A stretch of 64,000 bases of DNA from the NCBI GenBank assembly GCA_965215265.1, contig OZ244048.1:2464001-2528000 (forward strand), given 5' to 3'. Under the pieces are notes generated by a model. The model worked only from the letters and a program-made list of their open reading frames with translations, was not told where the DNA came from and did not search any database. Shown one piece after another: positions 5,661 to 39,662 of the stretch. Source of the DNA: Candidatus Poribacteria bacterium. Its GTDB lineage: Bacteria; Poribacteria; WGA-4E; WGA-3G. Within the stretch, counting starts at the first letter, position 1; each line of letters opens with the position of its first letter. A program made the position numbers and the translations under genes.

Positions 5661-7187
5661 TTATGATTGAAGTGCATGAACAGCCTCTTTAAACGCGTTT
5701 CCGCGTGCTTTATAGTCGGTATACATATCAAAACTGGCATTTGCCGGTGACAGTAGCACTACATCGCCGGGTACGGCATGTTGGTAAGCAACCTGCACAG
5801 CTTCCGTCATAGTTTTGGCAGGCAAGATATCGGTGAACGCTGCTAGGGCGTTTTGGATACGTTGTGTATGTCCGCCGAGCATGACACCCTTTTTGACTTT
5901 CTCACGTACTAACCGAATAAGCGGCGTGTAGTCGTTTCCTTTATCGTAGCCGCCCATAATCAGTAGAACGTTTTTTCTGGCCTCGGATGAAGGTGATGAA
6001 GTTACTGATTCAAGTGCTGCTTTTACGGAATCTACATTCGTCGCTTTTGAGTCGTCAATGAATTGAACACCGTGCACCGTCCGAACCCGTTCGAAGGCAT
6101 GCTTGAAGGCAGGGTGTGCAAGGTCAAGCTGCTGGAGTGCTATCCGGATATGCTCAGCGGTTACGCCGTAAATTAATCCCACGGCGGCTGCCGCGAGTGT
6201 ATTCCGTATGTTGTGTGCCCCTGCGAGCGGAATATCCTTGACGTGACAGAGGAATTGTGGTTTTTGGCATGCGTTCTCAGTGTGCTCTGTCGATGTGCCA
6301 ATATTCCCAAAAATCTGCAGATTTCCGGTTTCATCGCGTTGGAGATAAGTTCCTTGTGTAGCGTATCGTGGCTGCTTCGGAACATTCTCACTACTACCCG
6401 TGTGCGTATGGCATTCTGTGGGCTGAAAATAGACGGTTCTTGCGGTAGTTAATGCTGCGAAGTCGGCCACCTGTTCATCGGAACTGTTTAGTACTATCCA
6501 ATCGGCTGCAGTTTGGTTGGCGCATATCTGCTGTTTCGCGCGGGTATAGGCACGCATGGTCCGATGCCTATCCAGATGGTCCGGTGATATGTTCAGTACA
6601 ACGCTCACTATCGGATGGAAGGTGACTGTGCTTTCTAATTGGAAGCTGCTGGCTTCAAGGACGACGATGTCTCTACTCGTCAGATTCTGAACTTCTGCCG
6701 ACAAAGGGAGCCCGATATTCCCTGCGACACAGACGTTTGTAAATCGCCGGCTCGTTTCGAGAATAGCCGCTGTCAAAAGTGTGGTTGTTGATTTTCCTTT
6801 TGTTCCAGTAATTGCGACAATGGGTGCTGGACAGAGGCTCGCGGCAACTTCCAATTCTCCGAGGATTGGGATGCGTTTTGCCCGTGCCTTGCAGAGAATC
6901 GGAATATCGAGGGGTACACCGGGGGACACAATAATCAGTGCTGCTGCTGCTATACATGTGTCTGGATGCCCCCCCAGGTAAAATTTCAGCGGGGGGTTTT
7001 GACTTGACGGGCTCGGCATCTGCTGTGTGAGCTGCTCAATTTCTGCGGATAGAGCCTCACGCTCGCGGGAATCTGTAACTGTCACGTTCGCGCCCAGTGC
7101 AAGCAGCAATTTTGCGATAGCCAACCCGCTGCGGTTCAATCCAAAAACGATGACCGGTTTCCCGGAGAAAATGTCCGCGTTTCGCAT
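5661..7187 (-). CDS. murD: UDP-MurNAc-L-Ala--D-glutamate ligase
   Basis: VSPGVP, ITGTKGKSTT, EASSFQL, DHLDRH, DDSKATN, LLSPANASFD. Confidence 0.96.
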   Translation of the reverse strand: MRNADIFSGKPVIVFGLNRSGLAIAKLLLALGANVTVTDSREREALSAEIEQLTQQMPSPSSQNPPLKFYLGGHPDTCIAAAALIIVSPGVPLDIPILCKARAKRIPILGELEVAASLCPAPIVAITGTKGKSTTTLLTAAILETSRRFTNVCVAGNIGLPLSAEVQNLTSRDIVVLEASSFQLESTVTFHPIVSVVLNISPDHLDRHRTMRAYTRAKQQICANQTAADWIVLNSSDEQVADFAALTTARTVYFQPTECHTHTGSSENVPKQPRYATQGTYLQRDETGNLQIFGNIGTSTEHTENACQKPQFLCHVKDIPLAGAHNIRNTLAAAAVGLIYGVTAEHIRIALQQLDLAHPAFKHAFERVRTVHGVQFIDDSKATNVDSVKAALESVTSSPSSEARKNVLLIMGGYDKGNDYTPLIRLVREKVKKGVMLGGHTQRIQNALAAFTDILPAKTMTEAVQVAYQHAVPGDVVLLSPANASFDMYTDYKARGNAFKEAVHALQS

Positions 7188-8378: not shown

Positions 8379-9662
8379 TTACAACTTTCCTTCGCCTTTC
8401 TTCAATTTAGTGAGCCTTGCCCCGGCATGGCTGAGCAAGTTTGTTGGATAAGAATATGTTAAGCTGTTTTTCTCCTGATGCACTGCGAACGCTAAATCAA
8501 TGAGTTTGGAGACGAGTTGCGGGAATTCGACACCGTCGTGTTCCCAAAGATAAAAACTGAATGAACCGGGAAGCGTGTTAATTTCATTGACGTAAACCTG
8601 CCCCGATTCATCCATTAAGAAATCGATTCGTGCAACCCCGGTGCAGTCCAACGCTTGAAAACTTTGCAACGCGAGCTCCTGAATATGTAACGTCAATTCT
8701 TCAGAAATGGGTGCAGGAATTTTCCGTGTCGCACCTGCCATACCGGACGGAGCGGGCGATGCACTACTACTATCCTTGCTTTGGGCTCCTGTTTCGACTG
8801 GATGGCTCGCTTCCACTGTATTATCTGAGGGCATCCCTTCATTTTCATGGAGGTATTTATCCTCAAAGGTTAGAAATGCCGCTTCTGTCATCGGTTGTTC
8901 ACAAACCGAAGGGGTCAATTGGTGTGTTCCCATCACGGCGCAGTTAATTTCAGCTGGCTTTTTGACGGCTTGTTCTACCAGGATTCTGCGGCAATACTGC
9001 CCGGCGAGCTGGACAGCGGAGAGGAGTTCTGTGTTATTTGTTGCTCGACTGACGCCGATACTAGAGCCACTGAGAGCAGGTTTGACAAAAACCGGGTACC
9101 CCAGGGTGGTTTTGAGCTGCTTAAGAATGTTCGGTCTAAACTTGTCCCATTGGTACATTGTCCACGACAGATAGGGGACAATAGGAATCTGATTCTCCGT
9201 GAGAACAGCCTTCATCATGATTTTATCCATGCCGACAGCGGAGCCGACAACCCCGGCACCGACATAAGGCAGATTCATTAGTTCTAGGAGTCCTTGAAGC
9301 GTCCCATCTTCACCGTGTGAGCCGTGTATCGCCGGAAATACGACATCAACAGATAGTGTTATCGGTTTTGCGCGTCGGAACCACTTTGTCTTTTGTTTTG
9401 GAAGGACGGTGAACTTTGGTACTGTGCCGAATTCAACAGTGACAGTTTCAAAATCGGAAGCGTGTGGCAGCTGACCGTCTGTGAAGGTGCTCAGTTCGCG
9501 CAGTTTCTCTCCGGTTAGCCACTCGCCACTCTTTGTGACGTAAATCGGAATCACGTTATGCGTCTCTTCCAAAGCAGCACAGACCTGCTGCGCTGTTATG
9601 ATAGATACTTCGTGTTCTGGCGAACGTCCGCCAAAAACAACGGCTACATTATGTCGTTGCAT
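8379..9662 (-). CDS. ddl: D-alanine--D-alanine ligase
   Basis: FGGRSPEHEVS, HGSHGEDG, MDK, GSSIG, ARIDF, NEINTLPG; start ATG 9662 has a purine-rich RBS. Confidence 0.95.
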   Translation of the reverse strand: MQRHNVAVVFGGRSPEHEVSIITAQQVCAALEETHNVIPIYVTKSGEWLTGEKLRELSTFTDGQLPHASDFETVTVEFGTVPKFTVLPKQKTKWFRRAKPITLSVDVVFPAIHGSHGEDGTLQGLLELMNLPYVGAGVVGSAVGMDKIMMKAVLTENQIPIVPYLSWTMYQWDKFRPNILKQLKTTLGYPVFVKPALSGSSIGVSRATNNTELLSAVQLAGQYCRRILVEQAVKKPAEINCAVMGTHQLTPSVCEQPMTEAAFLTFEDKYLHENEGMPSDNTVEASHPVETGAQSKDSSSASPAPSGMAGATRKIPAPISEELTLHIQELALQSFQALDCTGVARIDFLMDESGQVYVNEINTLPGSFSFYLWEHDGVEFPQLVSKLIDLAFAVHQEKNSLTYSYPTNLLSHAGARLTKLKKGEGKL

Positions 9663-16363: not shown

Positions 16364-17329
16364 TCAGGCTGGTTCGATTCCGTCAAGGATTTTTCTTGCT
16401 GCTCTTAGCTTAGCACTCCGTGCGCGTGGATTTTGTTGAATTTCAATTTGCGCTGGACGCACGGGGCGTTTGGTTAGAATCTGTAATGATGGGCGATGTT
16501 CACAAATACAGACAGGCGTTTTTGGGGGACAAAGACATGCACGTGCACAGCGCTGGAACCGTCTCTTCACGATCCGGTCCTCAAGCGAGTGGAAGGTAAT
16601 AACACAAAGGATGCCGCCCGGTTTTAACAACGGGACTGCTGCATCTAAGACAGTGGCGAGGTTATCTAATTCACTGTTGACGTAAATCCGCAGTGCTTGG
16701 AAGACCCGCGTGGCCGGATGGATTCTGGCTGTCCGCTGTCGGTTAGCACGTGCTGAGAGTGCAGAGATGACAATATCAGCGAGATGTGCAGTCGTTTTTA
16801 TCGGTGTGTGCTGTCTCGCTTGGACGATGTACTGGGCAACTCGTTTGGCAAACCGTTCTTCTCCATACCGTCTGAAAATATCTGTAAGGGTATCCAGCGG
16901 CTTCTCATTGACGACCTGTTCTGCTGAGGGCGATTGCCGTGTATCCATACGCATGTCCAAAGGCCCGGTGTGATTGAAACTAAAACCGCGGCTGGGTGTC
17001 TCTAATTGTAAAGATGACACCCCTAAATCGAGCAAGATGCCATCGACACCGGTGATTGAATTGTTTTCTAGTAATGACTGAAGTTGGGCAAAGTTGCCAT
17101 GGATGAAGCGTGCCCGGTCTTTAAAGTGCTGCAGGCGTTCGCGGGCGATGGCTAATGCTGATTCATCAACATCAATTCCGATGAGTCGCCCGTTGGGCGC
17201 GGATTTTTCCAAAATTGCGGTACTATGCCCCCCCAATCCTACGGTTGCATCTATGTAAGTGCCGCCCGGTTTGGGTTTAAGCACCTCAAGTACTTTCTCG
17301 CGTAAGACCGGGATATGTTGTGTCGACAT
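16364..17329 (-). CDS. rsmH: 16S rRNA m4C1402 methyltransferase
   Basis: HIPVL, DATVGLGGHS, DLGVSSLQL, FQALRI, FHSLEDRIVK, NPRARSAKLR. Confidence 0.97.
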   Translation of the reverse strand: MSTQHIPVLREKVLEVLKPKPGGTYIDATVGLGGHSTAILEKSAPNGRLIGIDVDESALAIARERLQHFKDRARFIHGNFAQLQSLLENNSITGVDGILLDLGVSSLQLETPSRGFSFNHTGPLDMRMDTRQSPSAEQVVNEKPLDTLTDIFRRYGEERFAKRVAQYIVQARQHTPIKTTAHLADIVISALSARANRQRTARIHPATRVFQALRIYVNSELDNLATVLDAAVPLLKPGGILCVITFHSLEDRIVKRRFQRCARACLCPPKTPVCICEHRPSLQILTKRPVRPAQIEIQQNPRARSAKLRAARKILDGIEPA

Positions 17330-30924: not shown

Positions 30925-31165
30925 AGTATAGCAGCCTCGCTATTATTTTGTCAAGGCCGTCTCCAGATTTCGCTTCTCAAGGCGGCCTCGGTGCTTCTCT
31001 GCAGCCATCTCCTAAAAAACCAGGGGCAGCGACCGAAGATCGCTGCCCCTGATTAGGTTAGGTGAGTTTAAATCTCGCTGAGGTGACTCTTGTGCCTTAA
31101 GCGTCGCCCGCCGTTGGGTGAGTTTACCGTCCGTGCTCAGATGCCCTTTCAAGCGGGTTGTCTGC
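30925..31165. repeat. About 240-bp diverged direct repeat, copy 2 (gene tail, terminator, promoter)
   Basis: Homologous to 32302-32548; includes identical CTCAGATGCCCTTTCAAGCGGGTTGTCTGC. Confidence 0.92.
31015..31052 (-). terminator. Intrinsic terminator
   Basis: CAGGGGCAGCGA/TCGCTGCCCCTG stem followed by a T-run on the minus strand. Confidence 0.85.
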
Positions 31166-32268
31166 TACGTGCCGGTGTGGTTGTCAGCTGCCTCCAGCTG
31201 CCGCACGAGTTCCGCGCGCACCTCTGGAGATAAATTCTGAATCTCCGCCGGGCTGAGTCCTTCGACGCGCTCCTCGGGGCTGAGTCCTTCGACGCGCTCC
31301 TCGGGGCTGAGTCCTTCGACGCGCTCCTCGGGGCTGAGTCCTTCGACGCGCTCCTCGGGACTCAGGCGTGCCAACATATCGGCCCGTTCTGCGGCGGGTA
31401 AACTCGCCAACATATCGGCCCGTTCTGCCGCAGATAACCTTGCTAACATGTCCGCACGAGCTTCAGCGGGCAGCCGTGCGAGCAGATCCGCCCGGTCTTG
31501 AGGACTCAAGCGGGCCAGCATGTCCGCACGCTCCTCCGATGTCAGTGCAGACAGCAGCTTCGGACCTAAAGTCGTCGCGACTTCGCGAAGACGACTCTGA
31601 AAGAAATCTTGACGGCCTTCCATTTCACAAACCTCCTCCGTGACTTCCGGCTGCAAATACAACGCGGAGTCAAAATATAACTTATTCTCTTCTGTTATCA
31701 CCCGCCGCAGGAACGCACGAAACTGTTTCTGCGACGACGCAAACAGCAGCAACCAATAATTCGGCTCAACCAGTGCCACTTCATTGCAAACCAACAGATG
31801 CACCGGCACGCCATCCATCAACCGATAATGCCCCGCCGCCAACGGCTCCCACGGCTCCCCAAAAGGTGGGCGGGAGAGCAGCGCCCGCGGCTTCCGAGAC
31901 GATACTATCGTCAGGGTTAACTCGGTTGCAGGCACCTGCTTATCTGCCAGATAACCACGCGCACGCATACAAATCCGGTGATACGCCGATTCATTCAACG
32001 GGTCGTTTTGTCCTTTGAATTCAAACAGATTATGCGTGCGTAAGTAAGAGAGCAGCGGGTTGGCACGCACTCTCGCGCGGGCTGCGGCGCTTTCGAGGAG
32101 AGCGAGTGCATCTATACGCTGCGGCAACCGGTTCACTTCTATCTCTGTCTGGATAGAGGCACCCAGCCCAGAGAAGGGTAGGGCGAGGAACTCTTTGAAG
32201 AAAGGGTCCCAGAGTTTCCGTTTGCTTTGTGTTTCTTTAGATGTCTCCGGCACTGTCGTTTGCCTCAT
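31165..32268 (-). CDS. Rpn-like PD-(D/E)xK nuclease-fold protein with C-terminal LSPEER repeats
   Basis: WDPFFKE...TEIEV...RIDAL...NLFEFKG motif pattern; 13-aa and 9-aa tandem repeats at the C-terminus. Confidence 0.7.
   Translation of the reverse strand: MRQTTVPETSKETQSKRKLWDPFFKEFLALPFSGLGASIQTEIEVNRLPQRIDALALLESAAARARVRANPLLSYLRTHNLFEFKGQNDPLNESAYHRICMRARGYLADKQVPATELTLTIVSSRKPRALLSRPPFGEPWEPLAAGHYRLMDGVPVHLLVCNEVALVEPNYWLLLFASSQKQFRAFLRRVITEENKLYFDSALYLQPEVTEEVCEMEGRQDFFQSRLREVATTLGPKLLSALTSEERADMLARLSPQDRADLLARLPAEARADMLARLSAAERADMLASLPAAERADMLARLSPEERVEGLSPEERVEGLSPEERVEGLSPEERVEGLSPAEIQNLSPEVRAELVRQLEAADNHTGT
31250..31357. repeat. 27-bp perfect tandem repeat x4 (EERVEGLSP)
   Basis: GGGCTGAGTCCTTCGACGCGCTCCTCG x4, adjoining degenerate 39-bp repeats to about 31540. 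Confidence 0.95.
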
Positions 32269-32466: not shown

Positions 32467-35400
32467 TTATTCTTCCGATTTGAGCGTTGCCCAGCGTTCT
32501 GTGAGTTTCCCATCTGCACTCAGATGCCCTTTCAAGCGGGTTGTCTGCAGTGTCTGCTGCACACCTGCGTTGGAGACATCTTCAATGCGGTAGTAATACA
32601 CCACATTCGGTTTGGCAGACGTATCCGTCCAACTATAGTCGTTGCGTTCGCCTGTGGTGCCGGCCCCTGCAATCAACTCGGAGTTTATCTTTGTGAAGGT
32701 GCCGTTGCGCGCATCGCTCCGCAGCAGGTTGAATCCTGCGTTGTTCAACTCGGATTCGGTTGCCCAACTGATGACGATAGCGCCTTCTACGCGTTTCGCG
32801 GTGAAGGCAGAGAGCGCCACGGGCAGCGGGCCGCCGCCCCGATAGCCGGGCGTGCCTTCATCCTCGGCATTGCCGTAGAAGGTGTCGCGCTGCGCCTCGT
32901 TCAAAGAGGTGTTGGCGGCTAGCACCCAACCCGCTTCGGTGGTGCCGTCTTCGGCAACTGCGCCGGTGGCGCGGCTAGCGCTGCCGTAGCGGCGGATGAT
33001 GGAGCTGCGCCCGTCTTCAAGCATTGGCAGCTCCCAGGCAGGTTCTTCCCCTCGCCCGACATAGTTGCCAACCGTATCCACCACGGGCTTGACACCAGAG
33101 GCTTCTTTACCATATAACGTCAACTTGAAGGCGGTGGTGGCTAGCACCGGCGAACGCCGTTCCAAGTCCAGTTTATCGCGATAAGCGCTCTCGCGCCGCA
33201 GGTTGATGACACGTGCATCAGGGAAGTGGCCAGAGGTGCGCCCGGTGTCTGTCACGATGAGCAGCGTCTGGTTCGGGGGGATTATCTTACCGCCTACGAA
33301 TTTGAGCGTCACATCTGGGCGAACGGCGGTGTCGGTGGTGGCATCTTGTTGGATGCGGAGCGTCCAGTCGTTCAGATTCACCGCTTCGGTTAGAGAACTA
33401 TTGTGCAGCTCTATCCACTGCGGCAGCCGGTTGTCTGTGTCGAACATAATCTCGCTGATGGAGACTTGGCCCGCGGCGGATTTATCTTTCACTACACCGT
33501 TCTGATACCCGGGGGTACCGCCATACGCGTCTGCGTTCGGGGTATCGCGATCCCAGCCTATGCCGGTGAAACCGCGTTTGCTCCACGCGTTTTCCGCGAA
33601 GTTGTTCTCATTGTCGCGCTGATACACTGACCCTTCCTTGAACGCCTCATCTATATCCTTAAAGATGTCCTTGTCGGGATCCGGTGTCGCCTGCAGTGGC
33701 CAAACCTCCGTATTGTAGTTCTGAGAATCATGCGTCCCTACAAACGGAACGAAAACAGCGCCTGCCGCATCTTCTATGTGAATCGGCTTATTCTTTTGCT
33801 CTTTCTTATTCCGCAGCAGCAACAAGAACTTACCGTCGGCAGGAAGGTTGAGCCCGGATACAACTACGTATTGGTGCAACGCACCATGCTGCACCTCATC
33901 CGCATCGTCCACACCCAGATTGTTCCCACCAGCGAGAAAGTTTCCTTCGGGATTGCTGTTCGCAACGAGTAACACATCCCCGCCGGCAATGCTCTTATCA
34001 GGCAGCGTCACAAGCACCTTCTCGGTGCGCGCAGACGCATCGCCTGTCACAAGCGTGAACTCCCACTCTTTGATACTGACGGCGGCATCCGTGTCGTTTC
34101 GCAGCTCTATCCAATCTAGGCTGTCATCCGTGTGATTCCCTACTTCGTTGATGACAATCTTTCGACCTTCGAAACTCGTCCGGTCTCCGGCGGCGATACG
34201 CTGAGACGGGGTCGAACCAGGGGTGCCGATACGCTGCCCACCGAGGTTTATGCTCGGCGCAGAGGACGCTTGCCAGTTATCGGAACGGTTACCGTCTTCG
34301 ACTTCAGCCTTGGCAAAATCTATGCTCCTATACATCGAAACCAGAGACGCAGACGCGGCTTCATCAGTTGCCACGGTGCGCCCACCTCCACCGGGCACCT
34401 CCCAGTAGCCCAGCCCTAGATTGCTTATGCTATCTATCACCAGATACGGAGTCTCTCCTATTGTCACTTCCGCACGATTCACCAGGTCGCCTGTCGTAAA
34501 ATACAACGCCCAATCGTCCGCTACGGCAGTGGCGGCAACCGCTTTTACTGCATACAGCTCTAGCCACTGGCCAGACGACGACGGCGTTTGACTCGCATCT
34601 TCGCCCCACAACACTTCACTTATGACTACATCACCTTTCACGGCACCGCCGGTGGTTAGCTTCGGCGCTATCAATTCTATCGTCCCACCATTGCGGAAAA
34701 ATTCGCTCAAGTTACGAGTCAGGGTTTCTACAGGTGCAACGGCACTGGAGATACCATGCGTTGTGGATGAGCTTCCCTCTTGGGTCAATACCTCAAAACC
34801 GCCCGCTGCCAACGCTGAAAGCGTGAAGTAGTCCGCTTTCGCGAGCGTTTCCAAGTTGGGGAGGGTTGACAGATGCGAGATATCCGACACGGGCGAATCC
34901 GTAAAACCTACCACTGTCAATTTGGTGAGGGTTGACAGTGCCGAGATATCCGACACTCGCGCATTCCTGATATTCAGCGATATCAAGCTGGTGAGGGTTG
35001 ACAGCGGCGAGATATCCGACACTGGCGTATCACTGAGATCCAGCCCTATCAAGCTGGTGAGGGTTGACAGCGGCGAGATATCCTCTACTTGCGTATCACT
35101 GAGAGACAGCTCTAGCAAGTTGATGAGGCCTGACAGCGGCGAGATATCCTCTACTTGCGTACCCCTGAGATACAGCTCTAGCAAGTTAGTGAGGCCTGAC
35201 AGCGGCGAGATATCCAACACTTGCGTATCCCTGAGATTCAGCTTTACCAATTCGGTGAGGCCTGACAGTGCTGAGATATCCGACACTTGCGTATTCCTGA
35301 GCCACAGCCAATCCAATTTGATGAGGGTTGACAGATGCGAGATATCCGACACTGGCGTATTAGTGAGAAACAGCGTTGTCAAGCTGATGAGGCCTGACAG

Positions 35401-35906
35401 ATGCGAGATATCCTCTACTTGCGTATCACTGAGATACAGCTCTTCCAAGTTAGTGAGGCCTGACAGATGCGAGATATCCTCTACTTGCGTACTGTCGAGA
35501 TCCAGATATTGCAAGTTGGTGAGGGTTGACAGATGCGAGATATCCTCTACTTGCGTACTGTCGAGCTCCAGCTCTTCCAAGTTGGTGGCGTATTCAAGTC
35601 CTGTCAGATTGCTAACGTTTGATTCCCTTAGATCGAGGTATGTCAAGCGGAGCATATCTGCCTGGGTGACATCCGTCCCCGCGGAGATGTAGAGTGTCTC
35701 CTCTATTTCCGCAAGGAGCGCCGCATCCGGAATGTTCACTACCGGATTTTGGCTTACTGCCAGGGGGGCAATGAGTAACGAAAGCGTGATGCAAAATAGA
35801 ATGGAACAGGTTAAGGGGTGTTTGTAAACGGCATAACAAGCCCGGCGATTAATAATAGAACTAAAACACTTAACATATAGAGGGGGGGGTACATTCTTCT
35901 CTTCAT
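32467..35906 (-). CDS. Secreted LRR plus lamin-tail-domain surface protein; signal-peptide region out of frame at a C8 tract (ORF track 32467-35739)
   Basis: VNIPDAAL cap, about 11 LRRs of 22 aa, three ISE/INE...WIEL lamin-tail-like domains, PLPVALSAF...SELNNAGFN C-terminal domain; RBS plus ATG at 35906. Confidence 0.85.
34856..35590. repeat. 66-bp LRR-coding tandem repeats
   Basis: Recurring GACAG(C/A/T)..CGAGATATCC block at 66-bp period, several near-identical units. Confidence 0.9.
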
Positions 35907-36172
35907 ATTATCTAACTCCTTGTTATTCTTTATCCCGTTACGGAATAAACTTGACTTGACTTTATAGTTCGAACTAAGTTTCCGAACAGACTACGTTTTC
36001 AACCTTTTTTGCCAATTCGTAAGACGTGCACATAGGTGTTCAAGAAAATGAAATCGTGTTTGTGAATCCCTTTCCAAAAAATGCAGTGCATTCACAAACT
36101 CTCAACGGGCACGTCCGTTCATTCTTTCACTTTTAAAGAACACTTTTGCTCTCTTCGCAAAAGCTTATTTTA

Positions 36173-36201
36173 AGTATACCTCAAGAAAAAGTGTTTGTCA
36201 A
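36173..36201 (-). promoter_or_regulatory. Sigma70 promoter of the LRR/LTD gene
   Basis: TTGACA-17 nt-TATACT, about 260 nt upstream of ATG 35906. Confidence 0.75.
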
Positions 36202-36446
36202 ATTAAAAAGATGTGGAATATAGCAAGGTGAAGAAAGAGGATACCATCAAAGGATATAAGACAGAGAGTTGCGCTAATCTCTACGCCACGGTATGAAAGC
36301 ACTCTATTGGGTTGTCACCGGGTGGACAGGTTGGATTTATCGTTACTGAGAAACCCTCCGACGAGATTTTTAGTCTCTTTTAGCACAATAAAGGCAGTTG
36401 TGGCAGGTAACGTTTCATTTTCACATTCAAAAGAGAGGGGGATTTT

Positions 36447-36519
36447 ATGAAAAGGGAAAAATAAAGAATCCTATACGTATTGTAAAAGAAAATACGTTAT
36501 TTTTCAAACAAATTTTCAA
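36447..36519. repeat. Copy of the nrdJ-upstream repeat (right flank of island)
   Basis: 36451-36504 differs from 29363-29416 at 3 of 54 nt; contains TTGAAA-17-TACAAT on the minus strand. Confidence 0.9.
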
Positions 36520-36596
36520 ACCCGAAAAGTTTGATTTTCACCTTCACAGAGGAAAATCGGCTTGCTATTTGTTTTGAATTCTGCTATGATAAGGGC

Positions 36597-39500
36597 ATGC
36601 GAAACTTGAGACTGAACTCCAACAGTAAATCTGTGCGTGACTACTACACGACGCTGGAACGCTACGAACAGAGCCACATCGTTCACGAAGGTGCGGTGAG
36701 TATTCCGCTGGGGACGCTGCTGCAAACGTGTGCGCGACAGGTAGAGGCGGTATTTGTGCCGCAATATGCTATGCGTACGGAACGCGGAAACCGTATCGTG
36801 CTTGACGGTGCGATTCTTGATGAATACGAACTCCCTTTCGCTTATTGTGAAGCGAAAGACATGGCAGATGATCTGGAGCGCGAAATCATACGAAAGATTG
36901 ACGCGGGTTACCCGACATCTAATATCTTCTTCTACACGCCGCAGCGCGGTGTCCTCTATCAGAACGATCAGAGAGTGCTTGACGTAGACATGACGCAGCC
37001 TGACAGGCTCCTTGAGGCAGTGCAGCGTCTGTTTTCAGAGCCGTTTGCCGCGATTGAGAAGTGGCACGCCGCTGTTGCTGCATTCAAAGAGAGGGTCCCT
37101 GCGCTCGGGCGAGAACTCGCTCAACTCATCCGGCAACAGCACCAAACCAATACACGCTTCACCAGCGCTTTTGCTGATTTTTACCGGCAGTGCCGCGCAT
37201 CAATCAATCCGAATCTGTCTAAAGCCGCAGTGGAAGAGATGCTCATCCAACATCTGCTCACAGAACGCATTTTCCGCACCGTCTTTGATAATCCGGATTT
37301 TACACGCAGAAATATCATCGCCCGCGACATTGAAACCGTTATTGATGCACTCACGCACCACGCTTTCAGTCGAGACGGCTTCATGCGGCGTCTTGAGCCG
37401 TTCTATCGTGCGATTGAGCAAGCGGCGACGCTCTGCACGGATTTCTCGCAAAAACAACACTTTTTGAACACGGTTTACGAACAGTTCTTCCAAGGGTTCT
37501 CCATAGAAGTTGCGGATACGCATGGGATTGTCTATACGCCGCAACCGATAGTCGAGTTCATGGTGAAAAGTGTGGAATACCTCTTAGAAACCGAGTTCAA
37601 CCGTTCGCTTTCCGAGCCGGGTGTTCACATCATCGACCTGTTCGTTGGTACCGGTAACTTCATCGTGCGTCTGATGCAAGACATTGAAGGCACAATGTTG
37701 GAGGAGAAATACGGCGGGGAACTCCACTGCAACGAGTTGATGCTGTTGCCGTATTACATCTCCAGTTTGAACATAGAGCATGAATATTTCCGCCGGACGG
37801 GTGAATACCTGCCGTTTGAGGGCATCTGCCTTGTTGATACGTTTGAGTTGCTTGAATCAGAGCAGGCGCAACTCTTCACGCGTGAAAACACGGCCCGCGT
37901 TGAACGTCAGAAAGCGTCGGAGATGTTTGTAGTTCTCGGGAATCCGCCCTACAACGCTGGCCAGGTGAATGAGAACGATAACAACAAAAATCGGCAGTAT
38001 CCAGCGATGGATAAACGCATAGAGGAAACGTACGCGGCGGATTCCATGGCGCAGAACAAGAATAAGTTATATGATCCGTATGTGAAGGCAATTCGATGGG
38101 GGTTGGATAGGATAGGCGATGAAGGTATTGTCGCCTTGATAACGAACAATAGCTTCCTTGATGGCATCTCGTTCGATGGAATGCGGAAACATCTCGCGGC
38201 CGACTGCGATGCACTCTATGTTCTGGACTTGGGGGGCAATGCGAGGCGAGGCTTAAAGTGCTCTGACGCAAATGTCTTCGGAATCCAGGTCGGTGTCAGT
38301 ATCAACCTGTTTGTGAAGAAACAGCAAAAATCACCCGAGCCCTGCCGTATCTATTACCATCGCACTGATGAACTGTGGAATAGACAACGGAAGTTTGATT
38401 TTCTGAATGAACGCCAACATGCTGGGAATGTTGAGTGGCAAGCCATCGCCCCGGATGCCCGATACACTTGGCTCACGGAAGGACTCAACGCAGCGTTTGA
38501 TACCTTTATTCCTATCGGAACGCAGCAAGCAAAGAAAGCAAAAGAGGAGGCTGTGGATGTCATTTTCAAAACCTACAGCCTCGGTATTAGCACGAACCGC
38601 GATGCGTGGAGCCTCAACTTCAACGCCCAAGCGCTCTCTCAAAATATGCAGCGGATGATTGAGAACTACAACACGCAGGTTTTCAAGTGGCAGCATCAGA
38701 GCGCTCGAGGCACCAACGTTGATGATTTTGTGGAGGCTGATGCCACGAAAATTAAGTGGAGTTCCACGTTAAAACGGCATCTGAATAGCGGACATTTCGC
38801 TGAATTTAATGACTCAAAACTGCGGCGATGCCTCTACCGCCCTTTCACGAAGCGGGCGCTCTACTTTGATCGGATGCTGGTAGAGGGACCCCGGCTCTTT
38901 CCTTTCATATTTCCGACTCCTGAGACAGAAAAGGAAAACCAGGTAATTTGTGTAGCGGGTGTTGGAAATAGAAAAGGCTTTGGTTGTCTCGCAACAAATA
39001 TGATTCCTAATTTAGATGTGGCATTTGAAAAAACGCAATGCTTCCCTTTCTATACCTACGCCGAGGACGGCAGCAACCGCCGTGAAAACATCACGGAGTG
39101 GGCATTGGCAGCGTTCAGAACTCACTACGGCGAGGACACCATCAGCAAGTGGGACATCTTTCACTATACCTATGCACTCTTGCATCAGCCCGACTATCGC
39201 GAAACTTATCAGATGAATCTCAGGCGCGATTTACCTCACATCCCATTTGCACCAGATTTCTGGGCGTTCGTGAACATTGGCGCGCGGTTAGCAGAACTTC
39301 ACGTCAACTATGAAACGCAGCCCGAATCTGCAGGCTTGCAGTTTATTGAGACACCTAATGTCCAGCGGGATTGGCGCGTAGAGAAGATGAGATTCTCGAA
39401 AGAGAAGACGCAGCTACACTACAACGACTTCCTGACGATAGCCGGTATTCCGGATGAGGCGTTTGCGTATCGTTTAGGTGCGCGTAGTGCGTTGGAGTGG

Positions 39501-39662
39501 GTAGTGGATGGGTATCGTGTGAAGGTAGACAAACGGAGTGGCATTGTGAACGATCCGAACCGTGCGGATGTGCCGAAATATATTGTAGCATTAATCGGAC
39601 GGGTTGTGTCGGTAAGTTTAGAGACGGTGAAGCTTGTGGGGCAGCTGCCGCCGCTAGCATGA
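36597..39662 (+). CDS. Single-chain restriction-modification enzyme (Type IIG-like: nuclease, N6-MTase, Type ISP-like specificity domain)
   Basis: DG...EAKD nuclease motif, GIVYTPQPIV, DLFVGTGNF, GNPPY, YRPFTK, YRLGARSALEWVVD; no helicase motifs seen. Confidence 0.9.
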   Translation: MRNLRLNSNSKSVRDYYTTLERYEQSHIVHEGAVSIPLGTLLQTCARQVEAVFVPQYAMRTERGNRIVLDGAILDEYELPFAYCEAKDMADDLEREIIRKIDAGYPTSNIFFYTPQRGVLYQNDQRVLDVDMTQPDRLLEAVQRLFSEPFAAIEKWHAAVAAFKERVPALGRELAQLIRQQHQTNTRFTSAFADFYRQCRASINPNLSKAAVEEMLIQHLLTERIFRTVFDNPDFTRRNIIARDIETVIDALTHHAFSRDGFMRRLEPFYRAIEQAATLCTDFSQKQHFLNTVYEQFFQGFSIEVADTHGIVYTPQPIVEFMVKSVEYLLETEFNRSLSEPGVHIIDLFVGTGNFIVRLMQDIEGTMLEEKYGGELHCNELMLLPYYISSLNIEHEYFRRTGEYLPFEGICLVDTFELLESEQAQLFTRENTARVERQKASEMFVVLGNPPYNAGQVNENDNNKNRQYPAMDKRIEETYAADSMAQNKNKLYDPYVKAIRWGLDRIGDEGIVALITNNSFLDGISFDGMRKHLAADCDALYVLDLGGNARRGLKCSDANVFGIQVGVSINLFVKKQQKSPEPCRIYYHRTDELWNRQRKFDFLNERQHAGNVEWQAIAPDARYTWLTEGLNAAFDTFIPIGTQQAKKAKEEAVDVIFKTYSLGISTNRDAWSLNFNAQALSQNMQRMIENYNTQVFKWQHQSARGTNVDDFVEADATKIKWSSTLKRHLNSGHFAEFNDSKLRRCLYRPFTKRALYFDRMLVEGPRLFPFIFPTPETEKENQVICVAGVGNRKGFGCLATNMIPNLDVAFEKTQCFPFYTYAEDGSNRRENITEWALAAFRTHYGEDTISKWDIFHYTYALLHQPDYRETYQMNLRRDLPHIPFAPDFWAFVNIGARLAELHVNYETQPESAGLQFIETPNVQRDWRVEKMRFSKEKTQLHYNDFLTIAGIPDEAFAYRLGARSALEWVVDGYRVKVDKRSGIVNDPNRADVPKYIVALIGRVVSVSLETVKLVGQLPPLA

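Follow-up and report, generated by a model that had tools for sequence, protein, structure and literature searches.

Slippage switching itself is known in bacteria. The Opa adhesins of Neisseria are encoded by about 11 dispersed paralogous surface-protein genes, each switched independently by a repeat within the leader-peptide coding sequence (PMC3745409). The gene for the Gardnerella sialidase NanH3 has a poly-C run of C8–C14, of which C9 and C12 yield the full-length protein and other lengths yield products of 37–44 amino acids, and heterogeneity of run length has been documented within cultures (bioRxiv 10.1101/2020.09.16.300947). On a genomic scale, a survey of N. meningitidis counts 115 candidate phase-variable genes (PMC5084427). 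The present case is a probable poly-C switch on a large scale in an unstudied organism, a Candidatus Poribacteria bacterium. The focal gene lies on the minus strand of a 64-kb stretch of its contig OZ244048.1 (below, the window; start-region coordinates all follow the minus-strand reading), where a run of eight cytosines separates a start codon from the reading frame of a large protein with leucine-rich repeats (LRRs) and lamin-tail domains (LTDs).

As with Opa, this is a multigene surface family in which every one of the dispersed paralogous loci, 14 in number, has its own repeat within the part that encodes the leader peptide. The arrangement would work like Opa without being a member of that family. 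The Opa repeat is a CTCTT pentamer, whereas the focal one is a homopolymer; Opa proteins are beta-barrel adhesins, whereas Pfam finds LRR_4 and LTD domains only, and no such barrel, in the focal protein; and the module described here also carries a promoter and a long leader of the ribosomal RNA (rRNA) operon type and is used in two registers. The likeness to NanH3 is a poly-C run beside the signal-peptide coding part of a cell-surface protein. The difference is that NanH3 is encoded by a single gene with the run after the signal peptide, whereas the focal run precedes the hydrophobic core, recurs at 14 loci, and is known here from assembled sequence. In the literature on phase variation with homopolymers, LRR proteins, symbionts, and uncultivated organisms, supplements aside, we found nothing on such a system.

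We consider it likely that the C8 run acts as the hypermutable part of an ON/OFF switch at the level of translation and that it belongs to a multi-locus system of slipped-strand phase variation. The carrier of the switch would be a portable 5' cassette, present at the head of each gene in a family of 14 that encodes LRR, immunoglobulin (Ig)-like, and lamin-tail proteins, predicted to be secreted and displayed at the surface.

The poly-C run and its 14-locus family

The sequence that follows ATG 35906 is ACCCCCCCCT, with the C8 run at codons 6–9. As assembled, the ATG opens a frame of 31 codons (Table 1). The large frame extends from a TAA at 35909–35907, which overlaps the start region, down to 32467 (1145 codons) and reads ...PPPLYVKCFSSIINRRACYAVYKHPLTCSILFCITLSLLIAPLAVSQNPVVNIPD...; its first ATG, GTG, or TTG is GTG 35739, which would give a protein of 1090 amino acids. 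Run lengths of 6, 9, and 12 place ATG 35906 in register with this frame, and a scripted +1 variant of the run yields an open reading frame (ORF) of 1146 amino acids from it. Two marks of a homopolymeric contingency locus are thus present: an uninterrupted run of at least about 7 nt in or just upstream of a coding sequence (here C8) and a change of ±1 that toggles between truncated and full-length products (31 amino acids at C8 versus 1146 at C9). The initial annotation of the stretch had laid out this anatomy, from ribosome-binding site, ATG, and 31-mer to the C9/C6 register, the downstream GTG, and the upstream stop, and it proved correct in every detail.

When the leader was searched by blastn against the genome to which the window belongs (4.83 Mb, one contig), the upstream element was found at 15 loci. 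Fourteen of these have the same ribosome-binding site, the start ATG AAG AGA AGA AT(G/T) (C/T)A, encoding MKRR(M/I)(Y/H), and then a run of C7–C9, with about 320 nt of promoter and 5' untranslated region (5'-UTR) in common; the fifteenth, at 4105331, has a related upstream region without the run. Paralogous leaders with C tracts, which the initial annotation had proposed to look for, therefore exist, and the finding that it had named as contrary to a switch, paralogs without a tract whose start is the GTG further down, does not occur among the 14. Six of the 14 are in frame with their long ORF as assembled, and eight are out of frame, each of the latter with a single unbroken downstream frame of 436–1145 codons.

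A further mark of a contingency locus is a tract that differs between near-identical copies, and among these 14 paralogs the run is a T-interrupted C7, C8, or C9. The two closest cassette pairs (1567109/4595153 and 4031936/3458649) each differ at a single one of the 120 bases that flank the run (119 match), yet one copy has C8, in frame, and the other C9, out of frame, so the run is their most labile site. The in-frame copy most like the focal gene, at 4466485 (C9), reads MKRRIHPPPIHVKCFSSIIHRCACYAVYKHPLTCSILFCITLSLLIAPLAVSQSPVVNIPD... without interruption for 618 amino acids, and its leader is exactly the ON product that had been predicted for the focal gene. Cassette copies precede the sister genes at 87–96% identity, and the coding parts have diverged to about 35% amino acid identity. 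The ten members beyond the four of LRR type, among which the focal gene falls, have an Ig-like N-domain of about 430 residues followed by LRRs; a search of ESM Atlas with this paralog N-domain gave only weak Ig-like leads (at most 0.83). With 14 C-tract paralogs and near-identical pairs that differ in run length, the earlier proposal of a slippage ON/OFF switch at the N terminus of the LRR/LTD protein is well supported.

If the run acts in this way, a strong promoter of the rRNA-operon type would drive a transcript with a conserved leader of about 260 nt, and ribosomes would begin at ATG 35906, read MKRRMY, and enter the C run, which slipped-strand mispairing in replication would lengthen or shorten by one base. 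In the four LRR-type members, which are the focal gene and the three sisters closest to it, a run of C9 (likewise C6 or C12) would join the start to the gene's own signal peptide and, in the focal gene, a mature part of 1090 residues; at C8, translation of the focal gene would stop after 31 codons. In the other ten sisters, C8 would be ON and C9 OFF. Loci that switch independently would give a population with changing combinations of surface proteins. We infer that run length changes at a high rate in living populations and that C8 is the true consensus at the focal locus. Should run length indeed vary in populations, up to 14 adhesin-like LRR/Ig/lamin-tail proteins would vary combinatorially, possibly along with dozens of methyltransferases, and contingency-locus biology, known from a few host-adapted pathogens, would extend to a lineage, environmental or symbiotic, for which metagenomes are the main source of knowledge. 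Annotation is affected as well: gene callers place the focal start at GTG 35739, which leaves out the signal peptide, and about 50 genes are split or truncated at such runs.

The cassette and its out-of-register junction

By blastn against the same genome, 11 further loci align with the window from about 36200–36340 down to 35900, and four more align from 35952. In the 11, the common region reaches about 300–440 nt upstream of the ATG at 89.6–94.7% identity. The promoter of the cassette lies such that ATG 35906 is about 260 nt downstream. Together with the first ~130 nt of the leader, this promoter is homologous to the region upstream of a 16S rRNA gene, which follows directly on the homologous copy (Rfam SSU_rRNA_bacteria, 1535 bits). 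The leader portion includes a hairpin and the motif GTGTTCTTTAAAAGT, which may be likened to an rRNA anti-termination boxA. An Rfam scan of 35600–36600 returned no family, and folding of the 5'-UTR was not significant (z = −1.28). Several further copies of the promoter and leader precede small membrane-protein genes. A second rRNA promoter/leader copy (G000:C1:2300183–2300400, L030) continues into the 5' part of 16S for only about 100 nt, beyond which lie unrelated ORFs; at the gathering threshold, Rfam finds no rRNA in that interval.

The sisters differ in how they read the DNA behind the run. The a-type copies (n = 4), which align with the focal cassette as far as 35828, read it as (Y/C)(M/I)LS(V/I)LVL(L/F)(F/L)IA(V/G)L(C/V)MPSHV(Q/S)A, a normal signal peptide. 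The b-type (n = 5) has one extra base and a signal peptide of another sequence, LLYVKCFICVLS..., read from the beginning of this same DNA, and the c-type (n = 1) starts in the a-type frame. The focal cassette matches one of the a-type cassettes at 95% identity as far as 35828, just after ...GLVMP, so the hydrophobic core of the 31-mer is the first half of the a-type signal peptide. The large frame of the focal gene has a signal peptide of its own further downstream. In BLASTP, LTCSILFCITLSLLIAP--LAVSQNPVVNIPD aligns from residue 6 with P0007, a 1477-amino acid LRR+LTD protein of a genome of the same genus (G001) that starts MLRIQLPFAILFLIVSVLFFAPGQTATAQNVTIPD; a metagenomic relative, P0123, has the start MTRKTFYNTHPLTCSVLFCITLSLLIAPLAVSQSPVVNIPD and begins MTRKTFYNTHPLTCSVLFC.... 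Both proteins start conventionally just before the homologous signal peptide. In the cassette's own genome, the focal-type signal peptide is confined to the four LRR-type loci that the cassette heads, with homology beginning at HPL. From these alignments, the cassette replaced a conventional start by being joined, out of register, onto an LRR gene that had its own signal peptide; it is because of this out-of-register junction that the LRR-type sub-family needs C9 where the others need C8.

Relatives carry the genes without the switch. In two related genomes (G002 and G007), the N-domain family is large (30 and 35 matches), and all eight orthologous loci examined have a plain ATG and signal peptide with no C/G run of at least 6 nearby, so the switch would be a recent, lineage-specific addition to older genes. 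The cassette DNA had no match in 40 related genomes save a weak one of 38 nt near a C10 run in a genome of another genus (G024:C160, ~9403–9441, L014), where the run is followed by ACGTTAAGTGTTTTAC, resembling the focal post-run sequence; this may be chance or a distant relative of the cassette. Degenerate cassette patterns gave zero matches in metagenome contigs and zero in genome contigs, the start-plus-C8 pattern gave zero in the sister genome G001, and a search of genome contigs with the N-domain alignment found no related loci. A protein search with the ON leader (residues 1–70) gave none at near lengths and one match, P0123, at shorter lengths. Counts of C9 windows are at least 20 in 13 of 24 genomes of the same taxonomic family and at most 3 in eight of the 24; the 16 genomes from other families of the order have at most 21.

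Long C/G runs and competing explanations

C/G runs in the genome number 3152 at length 5, 500 at 6, 66 at 7, 44 at 8, 46 at 9, 4 at 10, and 6 at 11. A first-order Markov model expects about 45 runs of 8, so a single C8 is unremarkable taken alone. It expects about 10 runs of 9 against the 46 seen, and for runs of at least 9 it expects about 13 against 56, an excess of about 4-fold; relative to the empirical decay the excess is about 40-fold, because extrapolation from lengths 5–7 leaves about 9 runs at length 8 and about 1 at length 9, where the genome has a shoulder. The run also occupies the same codon in all 14 paralogous leaders. For each homopolymer class, we counted the share of sites at which a change of ±1 fuses two ORFs mid-gene. 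Random sites gave 33/4000 (0.8%). A/T runs gave 49/4335 at length 6, 14/1386 at 7, 3/646 at 8, and 1/123 at 9 or more; C/G runs gave 35/3152 at length 5, 3/500 at 6, and 0/66 at 7. All of these are at background, so there is no general homopolymer problem. Frame breaks are specific to long C/G runs, with 5/44 at C/G8 and 18/46 at C/G9, and 2 and 8 additional breaks, respectively, at 5' ends. The initial annotation had argued against a general error from two C7 runs (plus strand of the window, 6969–6975 and 17228–17234) in minus-strand genes that Pfam identifies as a MurD-type ligase and a MraW/RsmH methylase. Both runs are in frame, and the control is valid but too weak alone. The wider count excludes a general error, though not under-calling that is specific to long C/G runs.

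Several observations weigh against switching at the focal run, and some of them bear on the possibility that long C/G runs could be systematically under-called, in which case the focal C8 would really be C9, the gene would be intact, and the OFF states would be consensus errors at tracts that might still be mutable. Among 64 tracts surrounded by an open frame of 300 codons or more, those whose frames join at 7, 10, or 13 bases, mostly in methyltransferase and restriction genes, are out of frame in 39 of 40 cases, being assembled at 8 (13), 9 (25), 10 (1), and 11 (1); the 8- and 9-base tracts are thus 1–2 bases short of 10. The sister genome G001, itself a single contig, lacks one base in most of the nine tracts examined there, lengths in the focal genome pile up at 8–9 with just 10 runs of at least 10, and this genome and many relatives, being single contigs, are presumably long-read assemblies. 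Moreover, the cassette is in no other genome or metagenome searched, which leaves no between-strain comparison at the same locus, and the predicted ON leader is unusually long (about 52 amino acids), with a basic stretch of about 30 amino acids before the hydrophobic core. Part of the stretch was found in 20 sequencing runs from 12 studies, all as contigs and none listed as RNA, and four runs were compared (X1, X5, X6, and X7). The read evidence consists only of short Logan contigs (59–262 nt over the cassette) in a 14-copy repeat, and an a-type C9 cassette, in which just two letters and one gap depart from the focal sequence within the contig span, would pass the 95% filter. X1 and X5 have the C8 form only, and in X1 the contigs that lack the letter specific to the paralogs have the depth of the unique flank, about 8.9. 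A +1 form stands beside C8 in X6 (15.5 of 54.1 depth), which lacks cover on parts of the unique upstream flank, and in X7 (17.5 of 113.9); it is not assignable to the focal locus, and we take it as a weak hint of phase variation. However, the cassette depth with focal flanks in X7 is mostly C8 (~96 of 114), which speaks against a miscalled C9, as does the lack of any break excess at A/T runs up to 9 or more and at C/G runs up to 7. C10 and C11 runs are called, and in frame, in large ORFs (2393601 and 4693743). Five family members have C9 where C8 or C11 is needed, which would require an over-call or an under-call of two bases. In the 5/8/11 register, 12 of 18 tracts are in frame, and C8 is in frame at 11 of the 18 loci, trpA among them, as it is in other genes; the 6/9/12 register has 2 of 6 in frame and the C/G7 controls have 44 of 46. 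On this evidence we regard consensus error at the focal run as unlikely.

Three explanations depart further from slippage switching or add to it. In one, the out-of-frame copies would be dead paralogs of a recently expanded family, fixed in decay and with no reversible switching. The family is young and species-restricted, eight of its 14 copies are out of frame, and in one a T interrupts the run (TC7), but every out-of-frame copy retains its frame of 436–1145 codons without a second lesion, the breaks are at the run only, near-identical pairs differ only there, and a cassette conserved at 87–96% stands ahead of coding parts at about 35%; fixed decay thus seems very unlikely. Recoding, either by ribosomes that slip by −1 on C CCC CCC or by slippage of RNA polymerase, would supply a constant low level of full-length protein from C8. 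The run formally fits the slippery pattern X XXY YYZ, and the one-short state of many genes might mean that they depend on +1 slippage in transcription. Slippage sites, however, are known mostly as A/T runs, and folding of the 92 nt that follow the run gives −8.3 kcal/mol (z = +0.83, with 167/200 shuffles as good), so that the heptamer of a programmed −1 frameshift is present without a stimulatory structure. Ordinary decoding suffices in sister genes that are directly in frame at C8 or C9, and we give recoding scarcely any credence. Finally, the 31-mer could be a small functional membrane peptide, such that the switch chooses between two products, as the initial annotation suggested and as slippage switching would allow. 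It has a basic N terminus and an 18-residue hydrophobic core, and among the four LRR-type copies three of seven variable sites are synonymous in the OFF frame versus one of seven in the ON frame. Seven variable sites are too few for a test, however, and gene conversion from the a-type sisters, which use this frame as a signal peptide, would give the same synonymous pattern; the OFF products of other sub-families (12, 12, 36, 46, and 46 amino acids) are not hydrophobic. A second function is therefore improbable, and we read the 31-mer as a by-product of a cassette that was grafted, with the first half of a sister-type signal peptide, out of register.

Slippage switching, the reading that we prefer, leaves the 7/10/13 register to be accounted for, and three options are possible: under-calling by 1–2 bases, a consensus mode of 8–9 bases combined with a register that is mostly OFF, or decay of multi-copy genes. 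Methyltransferase and restriction genes are classes that are typically phase-variable. Phasevarions, which depend on phase-variable methyltransferases, occur in Neisseria, Haemophilus, Helicobacter, and Campylobacter, and Campylobacter has poly-G loci. As in such pathogens, G/C homopolymers here are many and concentrated in surface-structure and restriction-modification genes; the difference is that the bacterium is an apparently uncultivated diderm (the window encodes a TonB-dependent receptor, which identifies it as diderm) with about 100 runs of at least 8. We know of no description of some 40 methyltransferase-type tracts that are nearly all out of frame in one register. One could imagine a contingency system of about 100 loci with modal run lengths of 8–9, in which the register of each gene family sets its ON fraction, such that surface genes (8/9 register) would often be ON and about 40 methyltransferase and restriction genes (7/10) OFF in most cells but ON in a minority. 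A switch module made from an rRNA promoter and anti-termination-type leader, a start, and poly-C would have been grafted onto unrelated genes in either register, with the leader keeping the OFF message transcribed. We put this forward tentatively and think it less probable than not by some distance. Whatever its cause, the 39-of-40 pattern is a test case for telling true phase states from long-read homopolymer error.

Protein product, neighbors, and other run loci

Table 1. Positions of the start-region features, the encoded protein, and related loci. Positions without a prefix refer to the window, except those of family loci, which refer to the genome contig (G000:C1).
Feature	Position	Strand	Remarks
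Promoter, sigma-70-like	36173..36201	-	TTGACA-17 nt-TATACT, 11/12 matches; kept in cassette copies and upstream of 16S
Promoter and early leader	36078..36213	-	Homologous to 16S rRNA upstream region; counterpart G000:C1:2039440-2039571 (L029)
Hairpin, then GTGTTCTTTAAAAGT	36142-36164, then 36129-36143	-	Within leader homologous to 16S upstream region
5' cassette	35828..36223	-	Promoter, ~260-nt 5'-UTR, ribosome-binding site, start, poly-C, first part of signal-peptide coding sequence; own-genome blastn
Ribosome-binding site AAGGAG	35916..35921	-	9-nt spacer to ATG; kept in cassette copies
Start codon ATG of putatively switchable gene	35904..35906	-	
Poly-C run	35882..35889	-	C8 in assembly (G8 on plus strand); in genome census at G000:C1:2499882
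31-codon ORF at C8 (OFF product)	35811..35906	-	MKRRMYPPLYMLSVLVLLLIAGLVMPFTNTP*, stop 35813-35811
Relic of a-type signal peptide	35829..35882	-	LYMLSVLVLLLIAGLVMP in OFF frame, LYVKCFSSIINRRACYA in ON frame
Protein's own ancestral signal peptide	35752..35820	-	HPLTCSILFCITLSLLIAPLAVS; cleavage after AVS judged by eye
Predicted mature protein	32467..35751	-	LRR block, middle region, two lamin-tail domains, conserved C-terminal domain/tail
Internalin-like LRR block	~34840-35739	-	Lamin-tail best stretch ~33229-33480; last 30 amino acids 32470-32559
Family loci in frame at C8	1370650, 1567155, 2278150, 3394943, 4032034		
Family locus in frame at C9	4466584		
Family loci out of frame at C9	80742, 2925963, 3458753, 4220345, 4595199		Need -1 C
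Family loci out of frame at C8	1073207 and focal locus		Need +1
Family locus out of frame at TC7	4633545		T-interrupted; needs +1
a-type sisters using OFF-frame DNA as signal peptide	G000:C1:2278150, 2925963, 3394943, 4220345		
Methyltransferase/restriction tract examples	G000:C1:434253, 226577, 69544, 17857, 3122558, 467605, 3023040		L031-L040
Small-element loci	G000:C1:766585, 1260607, 3000067, 3492775, 4152748, 4396363, 4793306		

The domain assignments of the focal protein pass the Pfam thresholds: its many LRR_4 units score 142.4 bits (cut-off 27) and its two LTDs 81.4 bits (cut-off 34.3). The best NCBIfam matches are the internalin models for InlH/InlC2 and InlA (NF033188/NF033189), at 175 and 169 bits, far under the curated cut-offs of 1050 and 1600, and we do not assign the protein to the class 1 internalins. 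It shares with those of Listeria the 22-residue LRR units and an N-terminal cap; it differs in that no inter-repeat region or wall anchor was identified and in that its C-terminal half consists of two LTDs and a domain common in environmental metagenomes. Over 3000 database proteins share the C-terminal 750 residues (two LTDs and the conserved end domain), where the module sits behind varied N-terminal domains of adhesion type. Proteins of this family are presumably exposed at the cell surface.

The divergent neighbor at 36531–39662 (plus strand) encodes a Type ISP restriction-modification protein of 1043 amino acids with coupler, methylase, and specificity domains; Pfam finds no nuclease or helicase part in it. 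Downstream of the focal gene, an ORF of 367 amino acids (31165–32268, minus strand, considered together with 31087–31173) has a weak MgtE_N match and the same C-terminal tail of about 30 residues as the LRR/LTD family. This tail recurs downstream of many family loci, and the family loci may be small clusters of proteins with a common sorting-type end.

Outside the surface family, runs of at least 9 occur in Eco57I-like, MmeI-like, type III Mod, N6_N4 methylase, and HsdS genes and in comEC, as judged by Pfam matches on 13 of 19 pieces from 11 such loci. That the tracts in methyltransferase genes might code for the catalytic (D/N/S)PPY motif was considered and rejected; their flanks have other sequence, and on the coding strand many of them are runs of G. 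The comEC-type gene (Competence plus Lactamase_B; G000:C1:3228639–3231193, L041) is split by a C8 run and would need C9. A small repeated element with a frame of about 43 codons, MKHRESVY...FKSLLRRL, ends at a run of C8–C11 at each of seven loci. In the sister genome, one of three paralogs has a C run of 23 bases, in frame (G001:C1:898885–898907, L075), and the other two have C9, one base short.

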